Positions 61 to 16,035 of a stretch of 37,150 nt of DNA are shown here, one piece after another; the stretch's first letter is position 1; the number at the start of each line of letters is the position of its first letter. The stretch spans positions 1 through 37,150 of the forward strand of contig CAYYKU010000002.1 of NCBI GenBank assembly GCA_964440825.1. The letters run 5' to 3'. This DNA is from Candidatus Woesearchaeota archaeon. GTDB taxonomy: Archaea > Nanobdellota > Nanobdellia > Pacearchaeales > GW2011-AR1. The position numbers and the translations under genes are program-made. The notes under the pieces are model-generated. The model was not told the DNA's origin, did no database searches, and saw only the letters and a program-made list of their open reading frames with translations.

Positions 61-573
61 TTAGAAACCACTTGCATAAAAGATTACTGGTCGATTAGCG
101 TGTCCTGCTCCTGTTAATGTCCAACTAGTTTCTTTTTTGAAAGAAGTAGTGGTCCTTCCATAAACATACATCCCAGCACTATACTCCGTATTTGTCCACT
201 TTTCTTCGCTAGTACTATTTCCGCCAAAATAAGCTAGTAGTAATGTATACTTATTATTAGTAAATGCTGTTGGTAAATCAATAGCAGTATAATCATTTGC
301 AAATGAAATTCCACCTTGTTCAATCCAACCACTATTGTATTTTCTATACCATGAAGTATTATCACTAGAACGCCAAGTAGTAACTACATAATCAGCACCA
401 GCAGGAAGACCACTTACACTGCCTTCAATTTCATCAGCAGAATGGCCCATCACACTCGGAGCAGCGCCAGAATTATATGCAAAACTTAATCCGACAAATC
501 CAATTAAAATAAAAAATCCGACAATCAAAGACCAAACTTTCCAACTTAGATCAACTTTAACACTTCTTTTCAT
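61..573 (-). CDS. membrane-anchored extracellular protein, C-terminal region reminiscent of phage tail-fibre/collar domains (hypothetical)
   Basis: The ORF track gives 61..645, but codon 645 is a TTG that overlaps gmk. The ATG at 573 (MKRSVKVDLSWKVW...) lies exactly 29 nt from a TTTATAAA box at 595-602. There is one TM helix (WSLIVGFFILIGFVGLSF), then GHSADEIEG, then WYRKYNSGWIEQGG...LPTAFTNNKY...FYASGF. The tail-fibre resemblance is from memory only. Confidence 0.6.
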   Translation of the reverse strand: MKRSVKVDLSWKVWSLIVGFFILIGFVGLSFAYNSGAAPSVMGHSADEIEGSVSGLPAGADYVVTTWRSSDNTSWYRKYNSGWIEQGGISFANDYTAIDLPTAFTNNKYTLLLAYFGGNSTSEEKWTNTEYSAGMYVYGRTTTSFKKETSWTLTGAGHANRPVIFYASGF

Positions 574-594
574 AATAAAATTAAATCTCTTCTG

Positions 595-612
595 TTTATA
601 AATATTTTTAAA
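595..612. promoter_or_regulatory. back-to-back divergent TATA boxes (TTTATAAA for the minus gene starting at 573; TTTTTAAA for gmk starting at 634)
   Basis: Box 595-602 is 29 nt from ATG-573 on the minus strand. Box 605-612 begins 29 nt upstream of ATG-634. The same spacing recurs throughout the window. Confidence 0.5.
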
Positions 613-633
613 CGCCAATAGAGTATAATATTC

Positions 634-1197
634 ATGAAAGGACAAATTTTTATTATAACTGGCCCATCTGGAGTTGGCAAAACCGAAATCTCCAAAAGAA
701 TTTTAGCAAATTTAAAATTGAATACTAAGAAAGTAATAACTTGCACAACTAGGCCAAAAAGAGGGGGTGAAATAGACGGAAAAGACTATTTTTTTCTTTC
801 GAGAGAAGAGTTTAAAGAAAATCTAAAAAATAACAAATTTTTTGAATTTGCAAACGTTTATGGTAACTATTATGGGAGTAGAAAAGAAGACGTTGAGAAA
901 ATCCTGCATGCCGGTACAAACGTTTTGTTCGTAATTGATGTTCAGGGTGCAGTAAATATGAAAAAAATAGATCCAGACTGTAAGGTAATCTTTATTCAGG
1001 CAGAAAGTTTAGAAGAATTAAAAGTAAGACTTATGAGCCGAAATTCTGATGATGAAAGAGTTATAGAAAAGAGACTTTCTACTGCTCTAACCGAAATGGA
1101 ATCTGCACAAGAATTTGATTTTACCGTATATAACTTGCACGACAAACTAGGTGAAGCTGTAAGAGAAGTTGAAAAGATAATCTCGGCAAAAGTTTAA
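634..1197 (+). CDS. gmk: guanylate kinase
   Basis: P-loop GPSGVGKTE, the TTRPKRGGEIDGKDYFFLSREEF guanylate-binding motif, and a length (187 aa) typical of Gmk. Confidence 0.9.
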   Translation: MKGQIFIITGPSGVGKTEISKRILANLKLNTKKVITCTTRPKRGGEIDGKDYFFLSREEFKENLKNNKFFEFANVYGNYYGSRKEDVEKILHAGTNVLFVIDVQGAVNMKKIDPDCKVIFIQAESLEELKVRLMSRNSDDERVIEKRLSTALTEMESAQEFDFTVYNLHDKLGEAVREVEKIISAKV

Positions 1198-2372: not shown

Positions 2373-2756
2373 TTACAATCCTAAATTCTTAATAATATCT
2401 CCAACACGATTTTCATTTTTTATAAAAACTGGAACTCCCAAACCTTCGACTTTTTCTTTCAATGCCCCTTCAAGTCCGCTTGTATGAATAACCATTTTAG
2501 TGTCGGGAGACTTTCTCTGTGTTTCACGAACTAGTAAAAGACCTCCAAGTTCTGCAGATAACTTAGAATCATCGGCATATCTGGGCATCATCATATCATA
2601 AATCGCACAATCAGGACGTAATGATCTCTCACTTAAAACTTTCTGAGCAATTTGACTGTAAGAATAACAAACAACTTTATGTCCTTTTTGTTCTATTGCA
2701 TCAATAAGATATTGAACTTCTTTTATTTGATCATCCACTATAAGCACTGTAGCCAT
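2373..2756 (-). CDS. stand-alone CheY-like response regulator receiver domain
   Basis: Acidic pair LIVDDQ, phospho-acceptor context AIYDMMMP, conserved T (IHTSG) and K (VFIKN). It is 127 aa with no output domain. Confidence 0.8.
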   Translation of the reverse strand: MATVLIVDDQIKEVQYLIDAIEQKGHKVVCYSYSQIAQKVLSERSLRPDCAIYDMMMPRYADDSKLSAELGGLLLVRETQRKSPDTKMVIHTSGLEGALKEKVEGLGVPVFIKNENRVGDIIKNLGL

Positions 2757-2777
2757 AAAAATAGTCCTGAAATTCTA

Positions 2778-2785
2778 CTTAAATA
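2778..2785 (-). promoter_or_regulatory. TATA box (TATTTAAG on minus strand) for the receiver gene
   Basis: The distal end lies 29 nt from ATG-2756. Confidence 0.45.
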
Positions 2786-2786
2786 A

Positions 2787-3272
2787 TTATCTTTTCCTCA
2801 CAGAACCATAATCAAGATGCAATTGAGAAGCAAGAACAGAGTCATTAAAACAAGCAGATCCCTTTTCAGCAGAATACTTCCAAAGAAAAAATGCCTTTCC
2901 GTCGCAAGAAACAAAGTTTTGATCCTGTAATTCACAAGGTTTGAAAGGAATAACCGGTATTTGATAATCATAAAATAATCTTCTTACTTGTGAGAGGCTA
3001 TTTCTCTCAGTATCTTGTACTACAACTTTTAATTCTATACCTTTGTTTATTGCCCCTTCAAAAGCAGCGTAAACTCTTTCACTATTCCAAATAGGCTGTT
3101 CAAGTGTTCTCCAAAATAAATTTATTTCTTTATTGGCAGTCGAAACAAGATTATCTAAAACAACAGCAGTATGGTCTAATCCTTTTACTTCAAGTAATTG
3201 AGAAGAGTCATCTTTAATTAACGTTTTAACTATTTCTTCATAAAAATTAAAGCCCAATGTTTGTTTTCCCAT
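2787..3272 (-). CDS. hypothetical protein, paralogue A of the 3314-3802 gene (possible HKD-less PLD/TrmB-C-like fold)
   Basis: It aligns by eye with the neighbouring ORF: MGKQ..NFYEEIVKTLIK / MGKP..NFYSKLFEDLIK, STANKEINLF / SAANKEVCIC, and a C-terminal FND motif. The fold assignment is weak inference. Confidence 0.6.
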   Translation of the reverse strand: MGKQTLGFNFYEEIVKTLIKDDSSQLLEVKGLDHTAVVLDNLVSTANKEINLFWRTLEQPIWNSERVYAAFEGAINKGIELKVVVQDTERNSLSQVRRLFYDYQIPVIPFKPCELQDQNFVSCDGKAFFLWKYSAEKGSACFNDSVLASQLHLDYGSVRKR

Positions 3273-3293
3273 AAAAAGTCTTCAAAAACCCAG

Positions 3294-3301
3294 ATTAAAT
3301 A
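3294..3301 (-). promoter_or_regulatory. TATA box (TATTTAAT on minus strand) for paralogue A
   Basis: The distal end lies 29 nt from ATG-3272. Confidence 0.45.
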
Positions 3302-3313
3302 GATTTCTATTTT

Positions 3314-3802
3314 TTAATCAAGTGGTCTTCTTAAGTTAAACGCGCCAACTGGATCGTTAAAAGCCACCAAACCTTCTAGTGCATCAGAATTCATTATAGT
3401 ATATGCACGAGTATCGCTTATTATCATATTTCCAGGTTCTGTATGGTCAGCAATAGCGTATCTAATCTGGACACTGTGTTTTAGAAGATAAGCTTCTAAA
3501 TATTTAGGAACTGGACCTTCAGAGGTTATATTAAAAGATACATTTCTATCTAACGCTCTGGAAAGACTCGTAAACACTTTTGGATCCATCCATAAATCAG
3601 CAGAGAACTTGCTACAACAAATGCACACTTCTTTATTTGCCGCTGAAATTAAACCCGAAGTAACAATCTTGGCCTGCATTAAGCCTTTAAATTCATATCC
3701 ATAATTAGCCTCGCTTTTAATTAGATCTTCAAATAATTTGCTGTAAAAATTGATACATAATTTAGCGTTTTCTTCCCTACTCGAAGCAACAGGTTTTCCC
3801 AT
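3314..3802 (-). CDS. hypothetical protein, paralogue B
   Basis: The track start is 3838. I prefer ATG-3802 (MGKPVASS...) because it matches the MGK start of paralogue A and has an A/T-rich box upstream, whereas start 3838 has no box at -29. Confidence 0.6.
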   Translation of the reverse strand: MGKPVASSREENAKLCINFYSKLFEDLIKSEANYGYEFKGLMQAKIVTSGLISAANKEVCICCSKFSADLWMDPKVFTSLSRALDRNVSFNITSEGPVPKYLEAYLLKHSVQIRYAIADHTEPGNMIISDTRAYTIMNSDALEGLVAFNDPVGAFNLRRPLD

Positions 3803-3837
3803 GATTACATTATTCAAATAAATTAATTTTGTGTACA

Positions 3838-5874
3838 CTATTCAGTTCTCATAAAATTAGAACGTTTCATAATATCTGTTAATTTGTCTTGATTTCTATC
3901 TATGTCAGCCATAGCTATAACTTCCATAATCTCCGAATTACCAATGTGGAAATCTGTTTTAGCAATCTTCAACTCTCTCATTAATTTCTGTCTAAATGAC
4001 TGTGAAACAAGTATTTTGCCTTCACTTAAGTCAGATATTCTCTTTGCAAGCACAACACCATTTCCAATATTTGTATAGGCTAATTTTCCATTTACTAATG
4101 CAGAAACCATCTCCCCAGCATTCAATCCGATGTTATATACTATTTTATCTTTAAATTTACTATTATATTTGTCCAGCTCATTTCTTATCTTCCAAGCTGC
4201 TTTAGAAGCAATTATCTCGTTCTTGTAAGTCCTAGTAACCAAGGGAGAATAAATAATCAACATGTGTTGTCCTCTAAATTCTAAAACTCCGTATTTGTCC
4301 TTAGCAGTCGAAATAATTTCATTAAGTCTACTTCTAGCTTCCACACCTAAATGAGCATAATTCTTTATATTGACCGCAATAACTGAGCAATTATCTTTAT
4401 TTCCCTTTAATGTAGGTACTGATTGAGCTTCGTTTACTATTGGGTTTGCCAAATTCAGGAATTGTTTTTTCTGGAAAGCTTTTTTGCTGATTTCGTTCAA
4501 GTCTTCATCTTTCATTTCTTTTTGTGCTCTTTCATGTGATCTTGCTTTATAGTCATATGTTCTATTATTTCTGAACTTCATGAAAACTATTATTCCTGCT
4601 ACAATTAAAATAAGTGCAATAAAAAACCAAACCAAAGGATATTGTTCGAATAAACCGACTCCGGTCCAACTGCCAACTGAAACTGCATGCCCAGTTAAAC
4701 TTAATTGGCTAGCTGCAGAAAATACTCCTGTTTGTGCAAGAACATCATATATGCCGTCTGGCGCATGTAAATTATATCTTTTCTCCTCTCCTAATTTTAA
4801 ATCTACTAAAATTGTCTCAGTTTCATTTCCTATTGTAACATTTAAGCTATCTGAATAGGGGACATTTCCTATATTTGTAACAGAAACCATCTTCAAATCT
4901 TCAAGTAAAACAACGGAGATATTAGCGACTTCTTTTACTGTAAATTCTTTTTCAACAGAAAGATCTCCAATTGTAGCAGTTAAAAGATAACTTCCAGGAG
5001 TTGCATCACTTGGAAAGTCTATAGTTCCAGTTGTTCCAGATAAAATATCTAAATTATTTTGCTCGTTTTTTGGAGAAGTATATTTAACAGAAACACTTCC
5101 AGGCATTTTCAATCCTATTTGATCAGTCAAATCGACAGAAAAACTAAAATTTTGGTTTGGTGTTGCTTCAAAACTACCTAAACCAATTTCTAATTTTCTA
5201 GGGACTTGCTTAACTTCATAATATAATGCATATTTTTTCTGATTTAAAATATTATTAATCTCCCCATCATAAACCCATACAACTACTTCATATTTTCCAG
5301 CAGGAGCATCATTAGCAATTTGATATAATGCTGTAGCTATTCCTTCTTCTACATTTCCATTCAAATTAGCTGAGCTTGAAAGTTGATAGTGTCCATTTAA
5401 GGAGATGCCATTTGCTTTTTTAGCTTCCATAGAAATAGAAACAGTTTCTCCTGGGCTGTATAATGCCTTATCTATTTTAGTGGTTAATGAAATATCCTCA
5501 GTTAATAGAAAATGATTAGAATTTACAGACTCGCTTCCTAAAAAGGATTGAATATAACAGTCACCAATTAAAGAACCTAAATATTCTTTAGTAAGTATTA
5601 TTTTATGATTTATTTTTTGCGGAACATTTGGTGAAAAAGCACTTTCTGCAGGAGCTATTTTATAAAAATTTACTGAGTTTCCATCACAAACTAAATTTAT
5701 TTCAAAACTACCAGTTACATTTGAAGGATTTAAACTTACAGAAGTGAATACTGTATCTCCAAAATTGTAAACTTCAAAAGGTTGTTGTGTTATTTCTATC
5801 GTCGCTGAAGCAAAAGCCAAGCTAAATAAAACTGCAAAAGCAAAAATAGATACTAAACTTCCTCTCTTTATCAT
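3838..5874 (-). CDS. single-pass receptor-like membrane protein: signal peptide, beta-sandwich/Ig-like ectodomain, TM helix, cytoplasmic degenerate class III nucleotidyl-cyclase-homology domain
   Basis: Signal peptide (LVSIFAFAVLFSLAFASA). About 400 aa of beta-rich repeats (PGETVSISMEA..., APAGKYEVVVWVYD, ATPGSYLLTATIGD). TM helix WFFIALILIVAGIIVFMKF. The C-terminal 183 aa follow the cyclase pattern: CSVIAVNIKNY..., NIGLNAGEMVSAL, YTNIGNGVVLAKRISDLSEGKILVSQSFRQKL. Confidence 0.7.
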   Translation of the reverse strand: MIKRGSLVSIFAFAVLFSLAFASATIEITQQPFEVYNFGDTVFTSVSLNPSNVTGSFEINLVCDGNSVNFYKIAPAESAFSPNVPQKINHKIILTKEYLGSLIGDCYIQSFLGSESVNSNHFLLTEDISLTTKIDKALYSPGETVSISMEAKKANGISLNGHYQLSSSANLNGNVEEGIATALYQIANDAPAGKYEVVVWVYDGEINNILNQKKYALYYEVKQVPRKLEIGLGSFEATPNQNFSFSVDLTDQIGLKMPGSVSVKYTSPKNEQNNLDILSGTTGTIDFPSDATPGSYLLTATIGDLSVEKEFTVKEVANISVVLLEDLKMVSVTNIGNVPYSDSLNVTIGNETETILVDLKLGEEKRYNLHAPDGIYDVLAQTGVFSAASQLSLTGHAVSVGSWTGVGLFEQYPLVWFFIALILIVAGIIVFMKFRNNRTYDYKARSHERAQKEMKDEDLNEISKKAFQKKQFLNLANPIVNEAQSVPTLKGNKDNCSVIAVNIKNYAHLGVEARSRLNEIISTAKDKYGVLEFRGQHMLIIYSPLVTRTYKNEIIASKAAWKIRNELDKYNSKFKDKIVYNIGLNAGEMVSALVNGKLAYTNIGNGVVLAKRISDLSEGKILVSQSFRQKLMRELKIAKTDFHIGNSEIMEVIAMADIDRNQDKLTDIMKRSNFMRTE

Positions 5875-5945: not shown

Positions 5946-6845
5946 CTAAAAATAATAGGCCGTAACATTAATTAGAGTATTTTTAATAGTTAGGGCATGC
6001 TTTTCAACTTCATCTTTAATGTGAAACTCCTCTTCTACCTTTAATCTTTCTTTATAGCTTCTTTTTTTAAGCATTTCGAGTCTTTCGTTAGATTCCCGAA
6101 TCATACGCATAATAATATTTCTATCTCTTTCATAAGATGTATGTCTAAGTTTACTCTGCAATAGTTTGATTTTATTTGCACAACTTTCTACTTCATCATC
6201 TTTTTCTTTAATTTGCTTATTATAGTGACTCTTTACTCTAGTTAATTCTCTTTCAAGTTTCTGTTTCAAAATTTTCTTAATGGGTTTTATATCGCTCGAG
6301 ATTCTTTCTCCTAATTTTTTCTTTGCAAGTTGATAGTATTCTTCAGAATTCAAAGTTTGAATTTCATCTTTATTACCTTTCTGTGTTTTAAATTTAGAAA
6401 CATCTATCTCTAATATTTTTCCGTCTTTAACAAAAAATCTATTCAAAGACTGCTTTTTATCATTGAGATATTGATAAGTTGACATAAAAGAAAATTCGTA
6501 AAATAATTTTTCTCCTTTTATTTTGGAAAGTGTTGATTTTCCTGGAATTGCTTGGAGTTTTACTAAACTTGTCTGACCTTTATTTTCCAAATAATCTCTA
6601 ATAGCTAATAAAAAATAACTTCCTTGCATTATCAATTCAGAGTTAGCTACTTTATTATGTGTATTAATATCAAAAACAAATTTATAGGGTGCTTTTTTGC
6701 CAATAAAATTTTCAAAATCTTCCGGAACATTAGTTACATGTAATACTCTTTCTTTCTCTTCAGTAGAAAAATCCTTAAAAAACTCCATAAGAAAATTCTT
6801 TGAAATATCCTGATTTTTAGAATTAATTTTTATGTTTTTGCTCAT
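5946..6845 (-). CDS. hypothetical coiled-coil protein translationally coupled to the SNF2 helicase (possibly YqhG-like)
   Basis: ATGA overlap with the helicase stop (6842-6845). The N-terminal globular part reads FLMEFFKDF...LHVTNVPEDFENF...PYKFVFD...GSYFLLAIRDYL. The C-terminal half is K/E-rich and helical. Confidence 0.6.
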   Translation of the reverse strand: MSKNIKINSKNQDISKNFLMEFFKDFSTEEKERVLHVTNVPEDFENFIGKKAPYKFVFDINTHNKVANSELIMQGSYFLLAIRDYLENKGQTSLVKLQAIPGKSTLSKIKGEKLFYEFSFMSTYQYLNDKKQSLNRFFVKDGKILEIDVSKFKTQKGNKDEIQTLNSEEYYQLAKKKLGERISSDIKPIKKILKQKLERELTRVKSHYNKQIKEKDDEVESCANKIKLLQSKLRHTSYERDRNIIMRMIRESNERLEMLKKRSYKERLKVEEEFHIKDEVEKHALTIKNTLINVTAYYF

Positions 6846-8692
6846 TTGTCCAACAACTCCGAAGTATATTTTTTAGTTTTTTCGTAATCCTTTATTCCCC
6901 TACTTATTTCAGTTTCAACCTTATCAACTTCAATAGCAAATCTACTTAAATTATTTTTAGAATTAATAAAAGCATTCATAAGTTTTTCTTCGAATTTATT
7001 TGCTCCTGTTGTTCCACTTGAATCTAGTCCCATATTAAATAAAATAATTGGTAATTCACCCATAATTAAACCGATGCAGCACATTTTATTAATAATTAAA
7101 TCAACAACATGCTCTTCCATCGTTCCCTTTGTCGCAAGATTGTAAACGTAAATATCACTCTTTTGCCCAATTCTGTCTAACCTACCTATTCTCTGTTCTA
7201 CTGCCATCGGATTCCAAGGCAAGTCATAATTAACTATTATGGAGCAAAATTGAAGATTAAGACCTTCAGAACCTGTTTCAGTACTTACCATAATTTGTGT
7301 CTTATCTTTAAAATCTTGTATTCTTTTTGTTTTTTCCATAGGTGTCAGGCCGCCCTTAAATTCGGTAATGCTAAAATTTTGTTTCTTTAAAGTATTCGAG
7401 ATGTATTCTAAAGTTGCAGGATGTTTTGTGTAAATTAGTACTTTTTTAGTTTTATCTCTTGCCATTATCTCACTAATTATATCAATTAATTTACTTAACT
7501 TACTATCAATTGTCAATTCTTTGAAATCCTGTAAAATTTCTTGTGCAATTTCTACTGTACTAGTATGATATTTAGGATTATCAATAAGATTTTCTAAAAA
7601 CTCAATTGAAGACTTTGAAGAACTTGTTATCTTTGGAAGAATTGAATGTGCTGCCAAAACAGTATTTATTGGAATTCCGTTAAAATCTAGATAATGTACT
7701 AATAATAAATCTACAACCTGCTCATAAGCTCTTTTTTCTGGAAGAGTCATTTCCACTGACTGGATTCTTGGAATTCTTTTCATGTATTTTACTCCCTTAG
7801 CTTCATCTCTTCTCCTCCTAATCATTACCTCAGATAATTTTCTTTTTAATTCTCTAGGATTTAGTGGCTGTCTTTCATTCCCATCTACTAAAAAATTAGA
7901 TCTAAATTCACTAATTGTTCCCAAATGACCTCTTCTTAAAAGTGAAAGAAGATTATATAATTCAATCAAATCATTCTGGAATGGAGTTGCAGTCAATAAA
8001 AGAAGTCTTTTCTTTTGAAGTTTATCTACAAATTTCCATCTGTACGTATTTTTATCTTTTAGTTTATGTGCTTCATCAATAATAATAACATCCCAATAAA
8101 TTTGATGTGCCTGTCCATGTTTAAACTCATTTGTTTGTGGATTGAAATTTTTAACCTTATCAATAGAAGCAATAGCAAGCTCTGCACTTTCCCATTCACT
8201 CTCTTTATTAATTTCAGTAAAATCCAATTCAAATTTTGTTTTAAGCTCTTCTTTCCATTGGTTTACTAAAGATGGTGGCGTTAGAATTAAAGCTCTTCTG
8301 ACAAAACCTCTTACAATGCATTCTTTTAGAACCATTCCAGCAGTAATTGTTTTACCAAGACCAACCTCATCTGCTAATAAGGCCCTACCGTCTAGATCTC
8401 TTAAAATTTTCAAAGCACCTTCCTGTTGGTGGGGTAGGTTATATGTTAAGTTTTTTTTAATTAACGGATAGGAAATAAGTTCTTTAATCTCAGATTGCCT
8501 GGCTGCTTCCTCAGATTTAAGCTTCAATTCAAAAATATCTCTAGATTCGAATTCTTTATTCTTAATTTTTTCAATAACTTTCAAATCTTCCTTTGAAAAA
8601 CTCTCAACAACTTTCAAATTATCCGTATAGCTAATTTTTTCATTAGGGTTGCCAGCTGGTTTCTCTGAGGAGGTTATTTTTTTAGATTTCAT
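6842..8692 (-). CDS. SNF2/RapA-family DEAD/H-box helicase ATPase
   Basis: Motif I LADEVGLGKT, motif II IIIDEAHKLK, LLLTATPFQNDLIELYNLL, and C-terminal motifs STETGSEGLNLQ and NPMAVEQRIGRLDRIGQ. The track start 8707 is a TTG. ATG-8692 has an ATTAAAAA box ending 29 nt upstream. Confidence 0.9.
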   Translation of the reverse strand: MKSKKITSSEKPAGNPNEKISYTDNLKVVESFSKEDLKVIEKIKNKEFESRDIFELKLKSEEAARQSEIKELISYPLIKKNLTYNLPHQQEGALKILRDLDGRALLADEVGLGKTITAGMVLKECIVRGFVRRALILTPPSLVNQWKEELKTKFELDFTEINKESEWESAELAIASIDKVKNFNPQTNEFKHGQAHQIYWDVIIIDEAHKLKDKNTYRWKFVDKLQKKRLLLLTATPFQNDLIELYNLLSLLRRGHLGTISEFRSNFLVDGNERQPLNPRELKRKLSEVMIRRRRDEAKGVKYMKRIPRIQSVEMTLPEKRAYEQVVDLLLVHYLDFNGIPINTVLAAHSILPKITSSSKSSIEFLENLIDNPKYHTSTVEIAQEILQDFKELTIDSKLSKLIDIISEIMARDKTKKVLIYTKHPATLEYISNTLKKQNFSITEFKGGLTPMEKTKRIQDFKDKTQIMVSTETGSEGLNLQFCSIIVNYDLPWNPMAVEQRIGRLDRIGQKSDIYVYNLATKGTMEEHVVDLIINKMCCIGLIMGELPIILFNMGLDSSGTTGANKFEEKLMNAFINSKNNLSRFAIEVDKVETEISRGIKDYEKTKKYTSELLDK

Positions 8693-8776
8693 TTTCGCCC
8701 AAGCCAACTCTGCTTTTTAATTGTTTGCCTTTTAGTTTATTATTTTGTATCTTTAAAGGAGTAACATGCAGTAAGG

Positions 8777-10264: not shown

Positions 10265-10750
10265 TTAGCAACAGTACAATTTATCCGGATCAGCTTTTCC
10301 ACCTTCAAAGGGACTTCCCGTTTTTCTAATAGTTTCAATCATCTCTCCATTATTTTTCAAACTTTTACCATCTAAAACCAATGCCTCTCTTGCTCTTTTC
10401 ATAGCATCACATATTTTTAAATTTAAAGGGCACTTTGCTTCACAAGCTTTACAAAGATTGCACTGAAAAACCAATTCATTCAGAATATTTTCATTAAGCA
10501 TAATTGCATGTCCTCTTGGGGAAATTTCTTCTTTCTTTAGAGTCTTAAAAACTGGGCAAAGGGACTTACACATTCCGCATTTTATACATGGTGAAAGAAT
10601 TTCTTTTACTTCTTCCATCGCATTTCTTACGCTTACATTTGTTTTAACTTTCTGTTTTGGAACATCATCAAAGAAACCTTCATCTTTCTTCAATTTCAAT
10701 TGTATCGGTTTCTTTCCCTGTTTTGTAGATGTTTTTTTCTTCGCTACCAT
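10265..10750 (-). CDS. 2x[4Fe-4S] ferredoxin-type iron-sulfur protein (GlcF/HdrC-like N-terminal module)
   Basis: Two CxxCxxCxxxCP motifs: CIKCGMCKSLCP and CNLCKACEAKCP. Confidence 0.8.
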   Translation of the reverse strand: MVAKKKTSTKQGKKPIQLKLKKDEGFFDDVPKQKVKTNVSVRNAMEEVKEILSPCIKCGMCKSLCPVFKTLKKEEISPRGHAIMLNENILNELVFQCNLCKACEAKCPLNLKICDAMKRAREALVLDGKSLKNNGEMIETIRKTGSPFEGGKADPDKLYCC

Positions 10751-10818
10751 ATAAGTTAGATTATCAAGAGCTTTTTTATATGTTTTGAAAGTAAGATATA
10801 TATGTAATGCTAATAATC

Positions 10819-10826
10819 CTTAAAAG
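10819..10826 (+). promoter_or_regulatory. TATA-like box (CTTAAAAG) for the interrupted 10848 ORF
   Basis: The box begins 29 nt upstream of ATG-10848. Confidence 0.4.
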
Positions 10827-10847
10827 TAGACCTGGTTTTTTAGAGGC

Positions 10848-11354
10848 ATGTGGAATCCGGAAAAACCCTTAAAAGAGCTAGGCGGCATGAGTTTTCATTA
10901 TATTGATCATGCTGAATATTTGTATTATGACTTGCTAAACAATAAACTCTGGATCTCCACTAAGCCCCATCTGGAACCAAAGCATGCGGATCATAAATTG
11001 AGAGTGGTTTTAGCAGAAAACCCTGCTTGGTAAAGTCAATTATACCACTCTCAAGATTCTTTTAGGCGAGATCTTTCAATTAGGTCACTTGACAGATTAA
11101 GAAAGGGGAAAGATTTGCCATTTGAAATGGCTAGGAGTAAAGGCAATTTGTTTATGGAACGAATTAGATTTAGGTATGACACTGTATATAGAGAACTAAT
11201 ACATAGCGATTTAACTAAAGGATATTATTCAGATGGAGAATTTATTCAGCCAAATGATGAAGTTAGGGCGTATTTTAATATGCCTCCGCTTTATGTCACC
11301 ATAAGAAAAAAGGCAAATGAAAGTTCTGGAGATTTAGAATCTCTTCCATTCTAA
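10848..11354 (+). pseudogene. 168-codon reading frame of unknown function interrupted by one in-frame TAA (11031-11033)
   Basis: Track ORFs 10848-11033 and 11115-11354 are in the same frame. Hand translation of 11034-11114 shows no further stop. The second part has only a TTG start and no promoter or SD of its own. Confidence 0.4.
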
Positions 11355-12386
11355 TTAAATTCTAAATTTATCTGGGTCTATTTGTTTTAATTTTTCTTTA
11401 AATTTATCTAAATCTTCAGCATGTATCTGTGCTCCTGCAGCAGACTTATGCCCTCCAGCTAAACCGTCTTTAAGATCTGTAACTCCTTCCTGTAAGATTT
11501 TACTAACATCATATATTCTAGATTGATTTCTCGCAGAAAGACTAATCATCTCTTTTCCCTTTTTTGTAGAGAACACTAATATATTTTCCATTTCTTTTCC
11601 AGAAACCTCATTAATAAATGCAGATTTCACGCCAGGGTATTTTGTTTCTATATTATAATAGATAAATTTTCCAAATAGTTCACTATTTTTAAGATAATCT
11701 TCTCTTATTCTTTCCATATCTTTTTCAACAGGCCCATAATATTTTGCAAGTCTCAGAATATCTTCTAATCTTTTCATTTTGGAAACTTCCGTAAAAGCTT
11801 CTTCTAAAGAAGGGGAACCAATTAATGCAAAATTAAATTTAAATAAGTATTTCAGCAATTCTTCATGTGCCATTCCTAGTTTTTTGTAAGAATTTTGCAA
11901 AAATTCTGTATTTTCTGGATATTTCTCAGCATAATCAGATAGAGTTCCGGCAGTAGCGAGCCATAATTTATCTGCATTTTCTTTTTCAGTTAGTTCATAA
12001 ATCGTTCTAGTGGAAGGAACATATCCTTGAGAAAGAGTTCTTAGTTCAAATACAAAATCAGGTATTGGTTTATCCTTCTCTTCCTGGTGGTGATCTGTAT
12101 AAAAAATTTCTTTATCTTTTAACGTTGCTAAATCTTCCCAAATCAGGCTAGGGCCTAGGTCAGTTATAAATATTTTATTAAATCCCCCAAGAGGCGTATC
12201 TGAAATTCTTGTAACTCCTGAATTTATAATTCTCACTTCTGTTTTAGCTCCTTTACTAATCAAGTAGTCTTGTAATAGAATTCCAGCAGCAAATCCATCC
12301 ATATCGGTATGGGTAAATATCATTGCATTATCTTTATCATTTACTCTTTCCAAAAATTCTCTTGCTTGTTTAAAATCTATTTTCAT
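11355..12386 (-). CDS. DHH/DHHA1-family phosphoesterase (RecJ/NrnA-like)
   Basis: THTDMDGFAAG (DxD), ITDLG, YTDHHQ (DHH) and GGHKSAAGAQ (DHHA1). The track start 12398 is a GTG. ATG-12386 forms an ATGA overlap with the upstream stop. Confidence 0.8.
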   Translation of the reverse strand: MKIDFKQAREFLERVNDKDNAMIFTHTDMDGFAAGILLQDYLISKGAKTEVRIINSGVTRISDTPLGGFNKIFITDLGPSLIWEDLATLKDKEIFYTDHHQEEKDKPIPDFVFELRTLSQGYVPSTRTIYELTEKENADKLWLATAGTLSDYAEKYPENTEFLQNSYKKLGMAHEELLKYLFKFNFALIGSPSLEEAFTEVSKMKRLEDILRLAKYYGPVEKDMERIREDYLKNSELFGKFIYYNIETKYPGVKSAFINEVSGKEMENILVFSTKKGKEMISLSARNQSRIYDVSKILQEGVTDLKDGLAGGHKSAAGAQIHAEDLDKFKEKLKQIDPDKFRI

Positions 12387-13015
12387 ATAGTGTTCCACTC
12401 CTTGACGAATTTATTTACGAAATCAAGAGTATAATCATATTTTTCCTTTGCTATACTTCTTGCATATTTAGTATTAAAATTTTCTGGTTTATTTCTTTTT
12501 AATTTTTCAATAATATGATTCATTATAGGTTTTTTTGACCAATGTTCTTCTGTATTTTTATTTTCAGGATCATACAGTGGCGTACCATGTTTTCCAGCAG
12601 ACAGTAAAAATCTCACAATTAAAGATACGCCTAGGCATTCCAATCTGTCTGCATCTTGTATTATTGCCGCTTCTATTGTTTCAGGCTTAAGGCAAGTACT
12701 TTTTCTGTGAATTTTTATCGCATAACAAACTGCATCTATTTTTTCTTTTGGAAAATCAAATCCTTCTAATAACTCTTTAGCTATTTTGGCTCCTTCGGTT
12801 GCATGACACTCCACTTCTTCTTTGTTTTGTTTATTTTTTGCAATGTCATGCAATATTGCTGCAGCAACTATGATATCAATGTCTCCGCCTTCTTTTTCAG
12901 AAATTTCTATTGCATTTCTCAATACGTTTTTTGTATGATCTAACCCGTGAGCAACGCTATCTCCAAAATAAGGATTTACTTTTTCTAATAATTCTTTTAT
13001 CTGTTTGTTGTTCAT
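12383..13015 (-). CDS. HD-domain metal-dependent phosphohydrolase
   Basis: HGLDHTKNV ... AAILHDIAK ... IQDADRLE. Confidence 0.8.
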   Translation of the reverse strand: MNNKQIKELLEKVNPYFGDSVAHGLDHTKNVLRNAIEISEKEGGDIDIIVAAAILHDIAKNKQNKEEVECHATEGAKIAKELLEGFDFPKEKIDAVCYAIKIHRKSTCLKPETIEAAIIQDADRLECLGVSLIVRFLLSAGKHGTPLYDPENKNTEEHWSKKPIMNHIIEKLKRNKPENFNTKYARSIAKEKYDYTLDFVNKFVKEWNTI

Positions 13016-14124
13016 AAAATCTTCCCAGAATTAAATTTATTTGTTGGATCTATTCTATTTTTAATAACTGTTAAAAGTTTTTTATCGTTAACATCAACAA
13101 ATTCCTTCTTTAATAAACCAATTCCATGTTCTCCAGAAATTTGTCCAGATAATCTTTTAGTAATTTGCATTATTTCCGGAATTAATTTTTCCTGTTCTTT
13201 TGAAAAACAAGGATGTAAAATACCGACGGATAAATGCCCAAAAACAGGAACTCCATAAGATTCTAAATAATTAAATAGTTTTGTAAATCTATCCAGTAAT
13301 ATTTTTGGATCTTCAATTCTAGTATATCCTTTTTCTGCAAGCATCGGATAAACTTTATCCCTCACATTAACTAACTTTGTAAATTCTTCTCCTTTAATTT
13401 TGCCTTCCTCAGATCCGTATTCAATAATTAAATGATATTTGAATGGTAAACCTACAAACTCTGAGACTCTTTTATCTAAAAATTCTATCATTGAAACATT
13501 TGGATTTCGTTTTAAATCTCTGACAATATTTACAATCTCATCGATATAATCTCTAACAACTAGATCTCCACTTAAAATAACCGGTTTGTCAATTAACCTT
13601 AAACTAGCTTTCGAAATAACTCCTGTAATTCCTTCCATTCCTGAATAATCACTTAATTCTGTTTGAGCCTTTCTTTCAACATCACCATATGAATTAACAA
13701 TCTCGAGCCAATTCAACCATTCAGAAGTTTTGCCATATTTTATTGCTCTAGAACCTACGGCATTTGTTGCAATCATTCCTCCAAGTGTACAAATTCCATG
13801 CGAAGAAGGATTAACGGGAAACTCTAATCCAAATCCTGCTAAATAATCATTCAGATCATCCAAAATAATTCCTGCCTCAACTTCAACAGTTCTTCTATTT
13901 GTATCTAAATTACTTATTTTCTCCATCAAAGACATATCTAAAACAACTTCATCCTGTGGAACAGCACCTCCTGCAAGTCCACTTCCTCCTCCACGAATAC
14001 AAATCTTAGGGTTACTCTTAACAAACATTTTCAATTCTTGCATACTTGCAGGTTGCAAAATATTTGTAGCTTTTCCTTTAACTTGCGATGCATCAGTTTC
14101 ATAAACTATTTTTTCAGTGTTCAT
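13012..14124 (-). CDS. FAD-linked oxidase (GlcD / D-lactate dehydrogenase-like)
   Basis: PCMH-type FAD-binding motif IRGGGSGLAGGAVP, and a C-terminal ISGEHGIGLLKKEF motif typical of GlcD-family enzymes. Confidence 0.8.
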   Translation of the reverse strand: MNTEKIVYETDASQVKGKATNILQPASMQELKMFVKSNPKICIRGGGSGLAGGAVPQDEVVLDMSLMEKISNLDTNRRTVEVEAGIILDDLNDYLAGFGLEFPVNPSSHGICTLGGMIATNAVGSRAIKYGKTSEWLNWLEIVNSYGDVERKAQTELSDYSGMEGITGVISKASLRLIDKPVILSGDLVVRDYIDEIVNIVRDLKRNPNVSMIEFLDKRVSEFVGLPFKYHLIIEYGSEEGKIKGEEFTKLVNVRDKVYPMLAEKGYTRIEDPKILLDRFTKLFNYLESYGVPVFGHLSVGILHPCFSKEQEKLIPEIMQITKRLSGQISGEHGIGLLKKEFVDVNDKKLLTVIKNRIDPTNKFNSGKIL

Positions 14125-14480
14125 TTTATATCTTCCTTCCCAAGAATTTTATAATATTTTGAACTTTTCTTGTTAGATAATTTGAAGAGCTCAGAATAAA
14201 TATGTTCAACAGATTCTAAGTTATCAAAATCTAACTTTCGTATTTTCAAGCATATATCCCAAATCGGAGATATTTTATCAACATCTTCTTGTTTAACTCT
14301 TTCTTTGACAAAAGATAAAATAGATTTTACAGCCAGTTCTCTTTGTGTATTAGAAGTAAAACAAAACTTTTTAGTATTTACTCCAGCTAGATAAATCATA
14401 AATTTATATTCAAGCACGTTGATTGAATTTTTCTCAACAACTTTCTTATCATGAATACATGGTGCGATTTCCATTTTCAT
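14121..14480 (-). CDS. hypothetical protein
   Basis: An ORF embedded in the ATGA-overlap chain, overlapping at both ends. No recognisable motif. Confidence 0.5.
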   Translation of the reverse strand: MKMEIAPCIHDKKVVEKNSINVLEYKFMIYLAGVNTKKFCFTSNTQRELAVKSILSFVKERVKQEDVDKISPIWDICLKIRKLDFDNLESVEHIYSELFKLSNKKSSKYYKILGKEDIK

Positions 14481-15310
14481 CTTATTTCCACATAAGCAAA
14501 GATAGGATAATGATCTGAAGCCATCTCTGCTAATTTATTTTTAACTATTCCAGATTTTAAAACCCTTATAGTTTTAGAACAGAAAATATAATCAATCCTC
14601 ATTCCAGTCTTATTATTTGTAACATTATATCTTTTTGTAGGCATTGTGCTATCATATTTTTCATTACGCACATAATAACTGTCAATTAATCCTGCTGAAA
14701 TAACTTTTTTTAGCATTGCGCAACTAAGTGCGTCTCTTACATTTGACTCTGCCTTTTCTTTGCTTGCATGGAAAACAGTAAACTCCTTTGTCAAAACATC
14801 TACTTTATATCTGTCTTTTGGAGATAAGGCATTAAAGTTTCCAAGTAAAATATATGGTTCTTCTTTTTTATCTAAAACTTTACTAACCCATTCAGTTTTA
14901 TCTTTTTCAGAAATAGTTGGATACGGGTTAATCATATCAATATTAATTTTCTTTCCTTCAATTATAAAATGAGATTTGATATAAGAGCTATCTTTAATTG
15001 AAAAATTCTCAGTAGTAAATGGGAAATGAGAAAGAATAACTTCTCCCTTTCTAGAAGTTTCATCAGGCCTAGAATAATAAACGTAAGGAAAACCAAATTC
15101 TTTTCTATAATCAACTGTCTTTATTTTTGGGCCTTTAATTTTGCAAAGTGGATTAAAATCTCCCTCGCCAATAAAAAGAATATCTGGATTCATAACTCGG
15201 ATAATATTTCTAGCCGCTTCTAATCTTCTAGGTTCAAAAGAAAAAGAGCCATCTGGCTTTTTATTGTGAAATCCTCTCAAAACATTATACCAACCAATTT
15301 TTAAGTTCAT
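14477..15310 (-). CDS. endonuclease/exonuclease/phosphatase (EEP) family protein
   Basis: WYNV..., LLGNFNA, RIDYIF, and the C-terminal SDHYPIFAYVEI. The track start 15331 is a GTG. ATG-15310 (MNLKIGWYNV) has AAGGAG 6 nt upstream and an ATGA overlap with the upstream stop. Confidence 0.75.
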   Translation of the reverse strand: MNLKIGWYNVLRGFHNKKPDGSFSFEPRRLEAARNIIRVMNPDILFIGEGDFNPLCKIKGPKIKTVDYRKEFGFPYVYYSRPDETSRKGEVILSHFPFTTENFSIKDSSYIKSHFIIEGKKINIDMINPYPTISEKDKTEWVSKVLDKKEEPYILLGNFNALSPKDRYKVDVLTKEFTVFHASKEKAESNVRDALSCAMLKKVISAGLIDSYYVRNEKYDSTMPTKRYNVTNNKTGMRIDYIFCSKTIRVLKSGIVKNKLAEMASDHYPIFAYVEIR

Positions 15311-16035
15311 GTTAATCTCCTTAAAACCCACGTTGAAAATTCAACAACAGAGTCATCGGCAGTCTTTAAATTAGCAGTACAAAGTCCACAAGGTGTTAAA
15401 GTAAATTGGGCATCGGTTGGTTTTTCATCCATTCTTTTTTTAGCAATCTTCTTAGCAGTATCTGGATAATTTGCCCGCATCCCACCACCAGCACCACAAC
15501 ATAAAGCATTTTCTTTATTATGTCTCATTTCCTTCAGTTCTCCACCTAATAACTTAATTATTTCACGAGGTTCATCATAAATTCCAGAATATCTTCCTAA
15601 GTGGCAAGGATCGTGATATGTGACAATTTCTCTACCTGAAAATTGTTTTAGTTTTCTGTTTTTCAAAGCGTTAAGAACTGTCTGCGTTACATGCTCAACT
15701 TCAATGTCCCACTCTCTTAACAACTTAGGATATTCATTCTTGAACATATTGTAGCATCCTGCACACGGAGTAATTATTTTATCAATATTCTGCTTTTTGA
15801 ATAAAGTATAGTTCTTTTTAGCTAAATCTTTTGTATCTTTTTTATAGCCCGCATTCATAACTGGGCTACCGCAACAAACTTCAGTACTTGGCAACATAAC
15901 AAAGTCAATTCCCAAAAGATTGAAAATTCTCTTGTAATTCTCCTGTTCTGCAGTCATAACGTTTTTCAACATACAACCAGGATAATACAGTGTCTGGGCA
16001 TTCATCCCTTTTAAAATATCTAAGATTTTAACCAT
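15307..16035 (-). CDS. cysteine-rich CCG-domain Fe-S oxidoreductase subunit (HdrB / GlcF C-terminal / LutA-like)
   Basis: Two CCG modules: YYPGC...EVCCGSP...PCAGC and HDPCH...ALCCGAGGG...PCGLC. Confidence 0.8.
   Translation of the reverse strand: MVKILDILKGMNAQTLYYPGCMLKNVMTAEQENYKRIFNLLGIDFVMLPSTEVCCGSPVMNAGYKKDTKDLAKKNYTLFKKQNIDKIITPCAGCYNMFKNEYPKLLREWDIEVEHVTQTVLNALKNRKLKQFSGREIVTYHDPCHLGRYSGIYDEPREIIKLLGGELKEMRHNKENALCCGAGGGMRANYPDTAKKIAKKRMDEKPTDAQFTLTPCGLCTANLKTADDSVVEFSTWVLRRLT

Follow-up and report, generated by a model that had tools for sequence, protein, structure and literature searches.

A DPANN archaeal membrane protein family couples an MG-type ectodomain to a class III cyclase-homology domain without the catalytic set

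Introduction

The described systems closest to the protein reported here are of two kinds. Its closest solved relatives, with the same fold, are the bacterial class III cyclases Rv1625c of M. tuberculosis (PDB 7yz9 and 4p2f) and Synechocystis Cya2 (2w01), and its overall logic of an ectodomain, one transmembrane (TM) helix and a cyclase-homology domain (CHD) is that of the receptor-type cyclases of animals (GC-A, PDB 9bcv) and trypanosomatids (PMC7719234, PMC6027212). The receptor cyclases of both groups are catalytically active and have ectodomains of the periplasmic-binding-protein-like kind; in GC-A a kinase-homology domain is present as well. Archaea have been reported to be nearly without class III cyclases (Galperin's census, PMC1183210), and a 2023 review of archaeal second messengers mentions these enzymes for bacteria and eukaryotes only and names only CYTH (class IV-like) proteins as archaeal candidates (PMC10249747). 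Here we describe a gene from a 37,150-nucleotide stretch of a Candidatus Woesearchaeota genome (contig CAYYKU010000002.1 of assembly GCA_964440825.1; hereafter the window) whose product, unlike the receptor cyclases, comes from an archaeal host, presents four tandem macroglobulin (MG)-like domains outside the cell and carries a CHD without catalytic residues.

Lost sites within the cyclase fold have been reused as regulatory pockets, as in the forskolin site of the adenylyl cyclase (AC) C1/C2 pair, the inactive site of the soluble guanylyl cyclase (sGC) alpha/beta pair and the GGDEF receptors PopA and PelD, and pseudo-cyclase sites as such have precedent. In those systems, however, a second active site or an active enzyme is present in the same complex or pathway, whereas the archaeal family is wholly degenerate and has no evident active class III partner. 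The DPANN archaea, to which the host belongs, have minimal genomes and very few signalling proteins. We found no description of this family in the literature and it is unnamed; our preferred reading is a new subfamily of CHDs, catalytically degenerate and set in a new receptor architecture.

Results

Layout of the gene and its product

The initial annotation, made from the sequence alone, proposed a receptor-type membrane protein whose cytoplasmic class III cyclase-homology domain appears catalytically dead. The open reading frame (ORF) on which this rested is present exactly, and the motifs it quoted are found in the translation as AVNIKNY (residues 500-506), FRGQHML (533-539), NIGLNAGEMVSAL (581-593) and YTNIGNGVVLAKRISDLSEGKILVSQSFRQKL (600-631). 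The features of the gene are as follows.

3838..5874, minus strand: complete gene from the ORF list, ATG start, 678 residues plus stop, encoding four MG-like ectodomain units, a TM helix and the CHD
5803..5874, minus strand: signal peptide, residues 1-24, ending ...AFASA before T; hydrophobic window at residues 4-29, helix 5-21 in the model
4669..5802, minus strand: extracellular region, residues 25-402, four tandem MG-like beta-sandwich domains from the secondary structure of the model (pLDDT ~90)
4570..4638, minus strand: single TM helix, residues 413-435 in the model, Kyte-Doolittle peak 3.1 at residues 414-432
4432..4569, minus strand: juxtamembrane linker, residues 436-481, basic and poorly conserved, pLDDT <50 for residues 454-477
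3910..4431, minus strand: CHD, residues 482-655, class III cyclase-homology domain without the catalytic set
3844..3903, minus strand: C-terminal helix, residues 658-677, family-specific, found in both AlphaFold models and outside the cyclase-aligned region

The hydropathy scan and the full-length AlphaFold model (mean pLDDT 84.3) agree on the proposed topology, with one TM helix and the ectodomain outside. S23 and A24 of the signal peptide are nearly invariant among homologues, and a Lys/Arg-rich stretch follows the TM segment, which places the last ~245 residues in the cytoplasm. The bounds of the CHD itself differ from those first drawn, the domain starting near residue 482 (nt 4431) rather than 496 and ending near 655, with a short extra strand before it in the full-length model and a helix after it. 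In that helix R671, part of an ...[FL][LM]KR motif, is nearly invariant (>90% of homologues).

The cytoplasmic region is a class III cyclase homologue

Direct sequence comparison detects the relationship faintly, and profile and structure comparisons detect it clearly. The Pfam Guanylate_cyc model (PF00211) scores 18.5 bits against the whole protein and 19.7 bits (E 7e-4) against its C-terminal 200 residues, the N-terminal half of the CHD being too diverged for this model to align, and it is matched independently by 16 of 60 homologues (E<=0.01). An NCBIfam scan of the protein gave nothing relevant, and a single-sequence phmmer search of the PDB returned marginal matches only (E>0.7). When a family profile of the cytoplasmic region was run against the PDB, all 13 matches at E<=1 were class III cyclases, the best being Cya2 (2w01; E 6.5e-4). 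An AlphaFold model of residues 436-678, built from 42 family sequences, has a mean pLDDT of 84.5 and exceeds 90 through the core. With this model as the Foldseek query, each of the 50 best PDB matches was a class III adenylyl or guanylyl cyclase domain, led by Rv1625c (7yz9_A; E 5.2e-11, TM-score 0.76 on the target, ~185 residues) and followed by CyaB, GC-A (rank 3), RhoGC, CyaC, Cya2, sGC and AC C2.

For residue mapping, genuine cyclases were collected with the Cya2 fragment as query (120 PF00211 proteins), and 35 of these sequences together with Rv1625c, whose sequence was verified against PDB 7yz9 and 4p2x and is identical to 7yz9_A residues 72-250, formed a 36-sequence profile that was aligned by hhalign with the profile of 205 family domains. 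This profile-profile alignment spans 163 columns across the whole domain (probability 98.1%, E 4.8e-13) and was used in place of the direct alignment of the hidden Markov model to Rv1625c, which reached the C-terminal half only. Features in common with class III cyclases are the palm-like beta-alpha-beta-beta-alpha-beta core, the beta4-beta5 dimerisation 'arm' hairpin (residues 580-603, present in the AlphaFold models), the (G/N)-I-G-L-N-x-G-E motif that corresponds to R-I-G-I-H-T-G, and the A-[KS]-R helix with its Arg. These results establish the C-terminal domain as a true class III cyclase homologue, in fold and in descent, despite a sub-threshold Pfam score, and they bear out the homology claimed in the initial annotation. 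Identity as a GGDEF or other palm domain was ruled out, as no Pfam GGDEF match appeared even at E<=10 and all top fold matches were class III cyclases. A motif resembling the cyclase transducer element before beta1 was weighed by eye and not supported.

Six of seven catalytic elements are replaced or deleted

In Rv1625c the metal ions are bound by D256 and D300. Substrate choice depends on K296 and D365, the pair for ATP, whose counterpart for GTP is E/C, and the transition-state residues are N372 and R376; these roles are established in the literature. The equivalents of these and associated residues in the archaeal protein, from the hhalign alignment, are given below.

D256, first metal Asp: N502
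G259-F260-T261, P-loop: N505-Y506-A507
K296: a one-residue gap between F533 and R534
D300, second metal Asp: H537; with the G-D turn set against the G535-Q536 hairpin turn of the model, Q536
R344: N581
D365: T601
N372, transition-state Asn: V608
R376, transition-state Arg: R612, kept
NVKGKG beta7-beta8 loop with the gamma-phosphate lysine (K411/K413): deleted

Of the seven catalytic positions or elements only the Arg remains; the other six are gone. The alignment places no intact Asp, Asp or Asn at the catalytic positions, in keeping with the earlier by-eye substitutions of both metal aspartates and the transition-state Asn; the broader statement that every residue that does chemistry is replaced holds for these three and for the further losses, but not for R376, which is kept as R612. 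No acidic residue occurs anywhere within 533-538 of this protein, and HMMER alignments to 2w01 agree with this register at D300 and in the C-terminal half. Around the former site, K504-N505 occupy the x-G positions of the phosphate loop (D-I-x-G-F-T), and the retained Arg is directly preceded by K611. Compared with class III cyclases, this archaeal CHD has neither metal aspartate, no transition-state Asn, no specificity pair and no beta7-beta8 loop with its Lys, and in addition has newly conserved K504, N505, T547, T549 and K611, an extra N-terminal strand and a C-terminal helix.

The degenerate domain defines a large archaeal family

A database search returned 64 full-length homologues, nearly all of ~660-680 residues and with 26-100% identity. 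Their sources are archaeal metagenome bins carrying the names Pacearchaeota, Nanoarchaeia and Nanoarchaeota, and for most the annotation is 'hypothetical'; the two called 'class 3 adenylate cyclase' by JGI are mislabelled by automatic annotation. When the family profile was run exhaustively against 1.84 billion representatives (clusters at 50% identity), the number of clusters matched rose from 483 at E<=1e-30 to 618 at E<=1e-10 and to 1430 at E<=1e-3. In the set of the best 150 representatives, the full-length proteins are ~650-850 residues long with the CHD at the C-terminus after ~420-600 N-terminal residues, and every one of them has the same MG-TM-CHD layout; the others are fragment-like. 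The family is found in Woese-, Pace- and Nanoarchaeota.

Column statistics over the 205 family domains extend the pattern seen in the single protein. Position 502, the first metal Asp, is occupied by Lys in 99, Asn in 44, Ser in 18, Arg in 15 and His in 12 domains, such that Lys or Arg makes up 56% and an acidic residue occurs once. Met (103) and Thr (84) dominate position 601, the D365 equivalent, and Asn persists at position 608, the N372 equivalent, in 19 domains. Position 612 is Lys in 140 and Arg in 63, and hence basic in 203. Position 536 is more varied, with Asp in 77, Glu in 36, Asn in 34, Gly in 25 and Gln in 15, and many other members have an acidic residue at 532/533. Conservation above 90% is seen at A483, G491, K504, N505, P544, T547, T549, N552, N571, I578, G587, G604 and K611. 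Of these, N552 and N571 coincide in the hhalign alignment with conserved positions of canonical Cya2-like cyclases and are interpreted as helix caps.

Charges at positions 502 and 536 (nt 4369-4371 and 4267-4269) are associated, residue 536 being acidic in 83 of 114 members with Lys or Arg at 502 and in 25 of 76 with a neutral polar residue there, though phylogeny confounds this association, and mutual information after average product correction does not place 536 with the top partners of 502. The pattern is suggestive only; a K/R502-D/E536 ion pair may fill the former metal site in one subgroup, and in the present protein the pair is neutral (N502/Q536).

Taken across the alignments, the loss of the catalytic set is ancestral and family-wide, extending over at least 483 clusters at 50% identity. 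The gene is not a one-off decayed copy of a cyclase but a member of a large, conserved family confined to DPANN archaea, all of whose members are, judged from sequence, without the catalytic set. Purifying selection on the domain is as strong as on the other parts of the protein. Mean pairwise identity is 0.40 for the CHD, equal to that of the best ectodomain modules (0.41 for the first, D1, and 0.40 for the fourth, D4), with the linker the lowest segment at 0.21. The ratio of nonsynonymous to synonymous substitution rates (dN/dS) is 0.10 for the CHD and 0.20 for the ectodomain against a relative of 72% identity (locus L006; dS >1, near saturation), and 0.13 and 0.14, respectively, against a partial relative of 84% identity (L007; dS ~0.5-0.6). 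With a dN/dS of about 0.1 and an identity matching the best ectodomain modules, the CHD is kept by selection and is not decaying.

The ectodomain is an array of four MG-type domains

The initial annotation described a ~400-residue Ig-like ectodomain. It is indeed all-beta, and is here refined to four MG-type beta-sandwiches, bounded in the full-length model at ~25-125, 127-221, 227-313 and 319-402. Pfam MG2 is matched in 44 of 60 family members (best E 1.2e-12), A2M_BRD matches also occur, and Foldseek recovers the MG-domain arrays of complement C3/C4/C5, alpha-2-macroglobulin, CD109 and TEP1 (E ~1e-11, ~440 columns) with TM-scores of ~0.2 that indicate a different inter-domain geometry. Tandem MG-type beta-sandwiches are thus common to this protein and to alpha-2-macroglobulin and C3-C5 (PDB 5jpm, 6tav, 2wii); in contrast to those, the archaeal ectodomain (~380 residues) has only four domains and no thioester domain, CUB or bait region, and it is anchored in the membrane with a cytoplasmic domain. 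A reading as a thioester-based protease trap was ruled out, as no CGEQ thioester motif occurs in the translation of the 678-residue protein and the MG domains number only four.

The translation contains three cysteines (C63, C106 and C496). C63 and C106, both in domain 1 (window 5557-5688 and the 5686-5688 region), are invariant in all 60 aligned homologues and probably form an extracellular disulfide. Such a disulfide would be a noteworthy rarity for a small anaerobe-associated archaeon. The family profile also weakly matches the S-layer protein Sap (E 0.025).

Genomic neighbourhood

The gene is a syntenic core gene in contigs of the Woese-/Pacearchaeota type. A block with the order CCG, PHP, FAD oxidase, DHH/DHHA1, Fer4, target gene, (HAD) and class Ib tRNA synthetase recurs in relatives of 46-48% identity, and the adjacency to the tRNA synthetase is kept even in a relative of 27% identity. 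The nearest titled genome match in a single-protein scan, which gave only three loci, is a Candidatus Woesearchaeota metagenome-assembled genome at 84%. A conserved operon partner was ruled out, as the immediate neighbours differ among loci L001, L003, L005 and the window and only the tRNA synthetase and Fer4/DHH synteny recurs. The neighbouring features are the following.

~10265-16035, minus strand: upstream block of CCG-domain protein, PHP, FAD-linked oxidase, DHH/DHHA1 phosphoesterase and 4Fe-4S ferredoxin-like protein, also at L001 1868-5955 and L005 2726-4905
8806-10260, plus strand: two adjacent ORFs (222 and 259 residues) with no Pfam or PADLOC match, within a region inserted relative to L001
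5946-8707, minus strand: SNF2-family helicase (621 residues, 6842-8707) and an overlapping 299-residue coiled-coil-like ORF without family match
2373..3838, minus strand: downstream cluster, co-directional with the target gene and with overlaps or tiny gaps, of two paralogous ORFs at 3314-3838 (174 residues) and 2787-3272 (161 residues) and a CheY-like receiver at 2373-2756
61-645, minus strand: 194-residue ORF with an N-terminal hydrophobic segment and a weak, below-threshold match to a phage tail-fibre gp53 C-terminal domain (PF21882, E 0.003)

Only Fer4 and DHH of the upstream block were matched in the window itself, and the others were putatively assigned from ORF sizes. The presence of a DHH/DHHA1 phosphoesterase near a pseudo-cyclase may be coincidence. 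The helicase and the 299-residue ORF are inserted between Fer4 and the target gene relative to L001 and are also found in L007 (313-3047); the helicase has strong PADLOC matches to BrxHI, DrmD, DpdE and ZorD-type models, which probably reflect generic SNF2 similarity.

The two downstream ORFs are paralogous (24% identity, E 3e-14) and the receiver scores 31.1 bits against Response_reg. The same downstream order, with two receivers, is found in L006 (2885-4702), and none of L001, L003 and L005 contains the paralogue and receiver cluster, which is possibly a set of accessory or output genes in this sub-lineage only. By eye the paralogues resemble PLD-type domains without the HxK motif, and the one at 2787-3272 has a weak DrmC (PLD-like) match (E 0.003) and a Pfam DUF7931 match (E 0.013). 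The window is AT-rich (GC content ~31-33%) and contains no tRNA genes and no second CHD, and the target protein matches none of the PADLOC defence families at E<=0.01.

Discussion

Our analysis points to a single-pass surface receptor or adhesin of DPANN archaea, with an MG stalk outside and a dead class III CHD inside that serves as a non-catalytic module for binding an anionic ligand or docking a partner, a reading to which we assign a probability of roughly 60%. The protein would be a type I surface receptor or adhesin of a Woese-/Pacearchaeota-type archaeon and, with the two-metal-ion machinery lost, its CHD would make neither cyclic AMP (cAMP) nor cyclic GMP. By analogy with all class III domains, we infer probable head-to-tail dimerisation of the CHD; the receptor itself would then be a dimer, with two former active-site pockets at the dimer interface. 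These pockets could act as metal-free sites that accept an anionic ligand, for instance a nucleotide or another phosphorylated molecule, or alternatively be used to dock a partner protein. Basic or polar residues are the ones that remained or became conserved where the active site used to be (K504-N505 in the phosphate-binding loop after beta1, K611-R/K612 at the N-terminal end of the 'NxxxR' helix, and Lys or Arg at 502 in more than half of the family), and it is on this account that the pockets are most likely anionic-ligand sites. The pocket would then couple what happens at the MG ectodomain, such as an encounter with a host cell or surface, to the cytoplasm, with no second messenger being made. 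The suggestion in the initial annotation of a signalling scaffold or nucleotide sensor is plausible in this light, and its remark that the architecture is unusual for archaea is consistent with Galperin's census (PMC1183210).

Several observations weigh against this reading. The Guanylate_cyc score falls below the gathering threshold of 21.9 bits, and the match covers profile positions 79-170 only. The register of the second metal Asp is ambiguous by one residue (Q536 or H537), and Asp or Glu occupies position 536, in the beta2-beta3 hairpin, in 113 of the 205 family members, though not in this protein; together with the kept Arg, this makes residual or altered chemistry possible. Finally, no conserved neighbour suggests an output pathway gene, the receivers being adjacent only in close relatives.

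The last of these points would be accommodated by a purely structural module, in which the dead CHD is a dimerisation or anchoring plug for an adhesin or S-layer-associated protein, with no ligand and no signalling. Such a plug would fit an ectodomain that resembles beta-sandwich arrays of the surface or adhesion type, with its weak match to the S-layer protein, as well as the absence from the neighbourhoods examined of a signalling partner conserved across lineages and the structural nature of many invariant residues (Gly, Pro and the putative helix caps). We nevertheless consider it doubtful, because the most conserved non-structural residues (K504, N505, K611 and K/R612) map to former triphosphate-binding elements rather than to the hydrophobic core, because the CHD, with a dN/dS no higher than the ectodomain's, is more constrained than a mere plug would have to be, and because the conserved T547-x-T549 motif and R671 of the C-terminal helix suggest specific interactions.

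That the protein is still an enzyme, performing cyclisation or another phosphoryl or nucleotidyl transfer with relocated, non-canonical residues in a lysine-assisted or single-metal reaction, we regard as improbable. The R376 equivalent, the acidic residues in the hairpin (at 536 or, in many other members, at 532/533) and the strongly conserved polar cluster could be taken as the remains of such a site, and cases of 'migrated' catalytic residues are noted in the pseudoenzyme literature (PMC10211241). The first metal position, however, is predominantly Lys or Arg and almost never acidic, the present protein is devoid of acidic residues within 533-538, the equivalents of N372, K296 and D365 are lost and the K411 loop is deleted. 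Moreover, the hairpin acidic residue is not conserved family-wide, so that no common catalytic set can be defined.

A much less credible alternative draws on the division of labour between the C1 and C2 halves of heterodimeric adenylyl cyclases. Here the protein would be a C2-like regulatory subunit that pairs with a competent class III cyclase from another place in the genome and lends it the Arg, on the pattern of mammalian C1/C2 or sGC alpha/beta. The loss of both aspartates with retention of the Arg is indeed superficially like a C2 half. The other residues of the C2 side are also gone, however (the Asn, the Lys/Asp pair that sets specificity and the Lys for the gamma-phosphate), no other CHD is found in the window or among the called genes flanking L001-L005, and no distinct partner architecture appears among the best 150 representatives. 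Archaea are in addition reported to be generally without AC3 enzymes (PMC1183210). Weakest of all is the proposal that the gene is part of an anti-phage defence island, as a cyclase-fold sensor or effector acting with the neighbouring helicase and PLD-like genes, for although the helicase matches BrxHI and DrmD models, a downstream paralogue weakly matches DrmC and the genes on either side differ from relative to relative in the manner of an island, PADLOC yields no match for the target protein, which is a core gene that occurs without those neighbours in L001, L003 and L005, three loci that suggest its independence from them, the SNF2 similarity is generic, and the defence-like genes are insertions around the target and not conserved partners.

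Returning to the receptor with a non-catalytic ligand or docking module, a bolder form of it can be offered tentatively, though we think it unlikely as a whole. The family may constitute a DPANN-wide receptor class in which the cyclase site was turned into a metal-free, lysine-lined pocket at a dimer interface that senses a cytoplasmic anionic metabolite, nucleotides being one example, or recruits a partner, linking the nucleotide or energy state of the cell to the MG surface apparatus for host or surface contact in an inside-out or outside-in manner and with no second messenger. DPANN symbionts are generally thought to obtain nucleotides from their hosts.

In summary, the family offers a clear-cut natural case in which cyclase-fold pseudoenzymes make up an entire family, and recognising it avoids the false inference of cAMP signalling in DPANN genomes. 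The CHD is a tractable soluble domain for structural and binding studies. If true, the lysine-lined-pocket reading would make this the first functional, lineage-defining pseudo-cyclase receptor in archaea. Strong purifying selection and a place in the syntenic core of hundreds of Woese-/Pace-/Nanoarchaeota lineages make the gene a promising candidate for a key component, at the surface or in host interaction, of these uncultivated ultra-small archaea.

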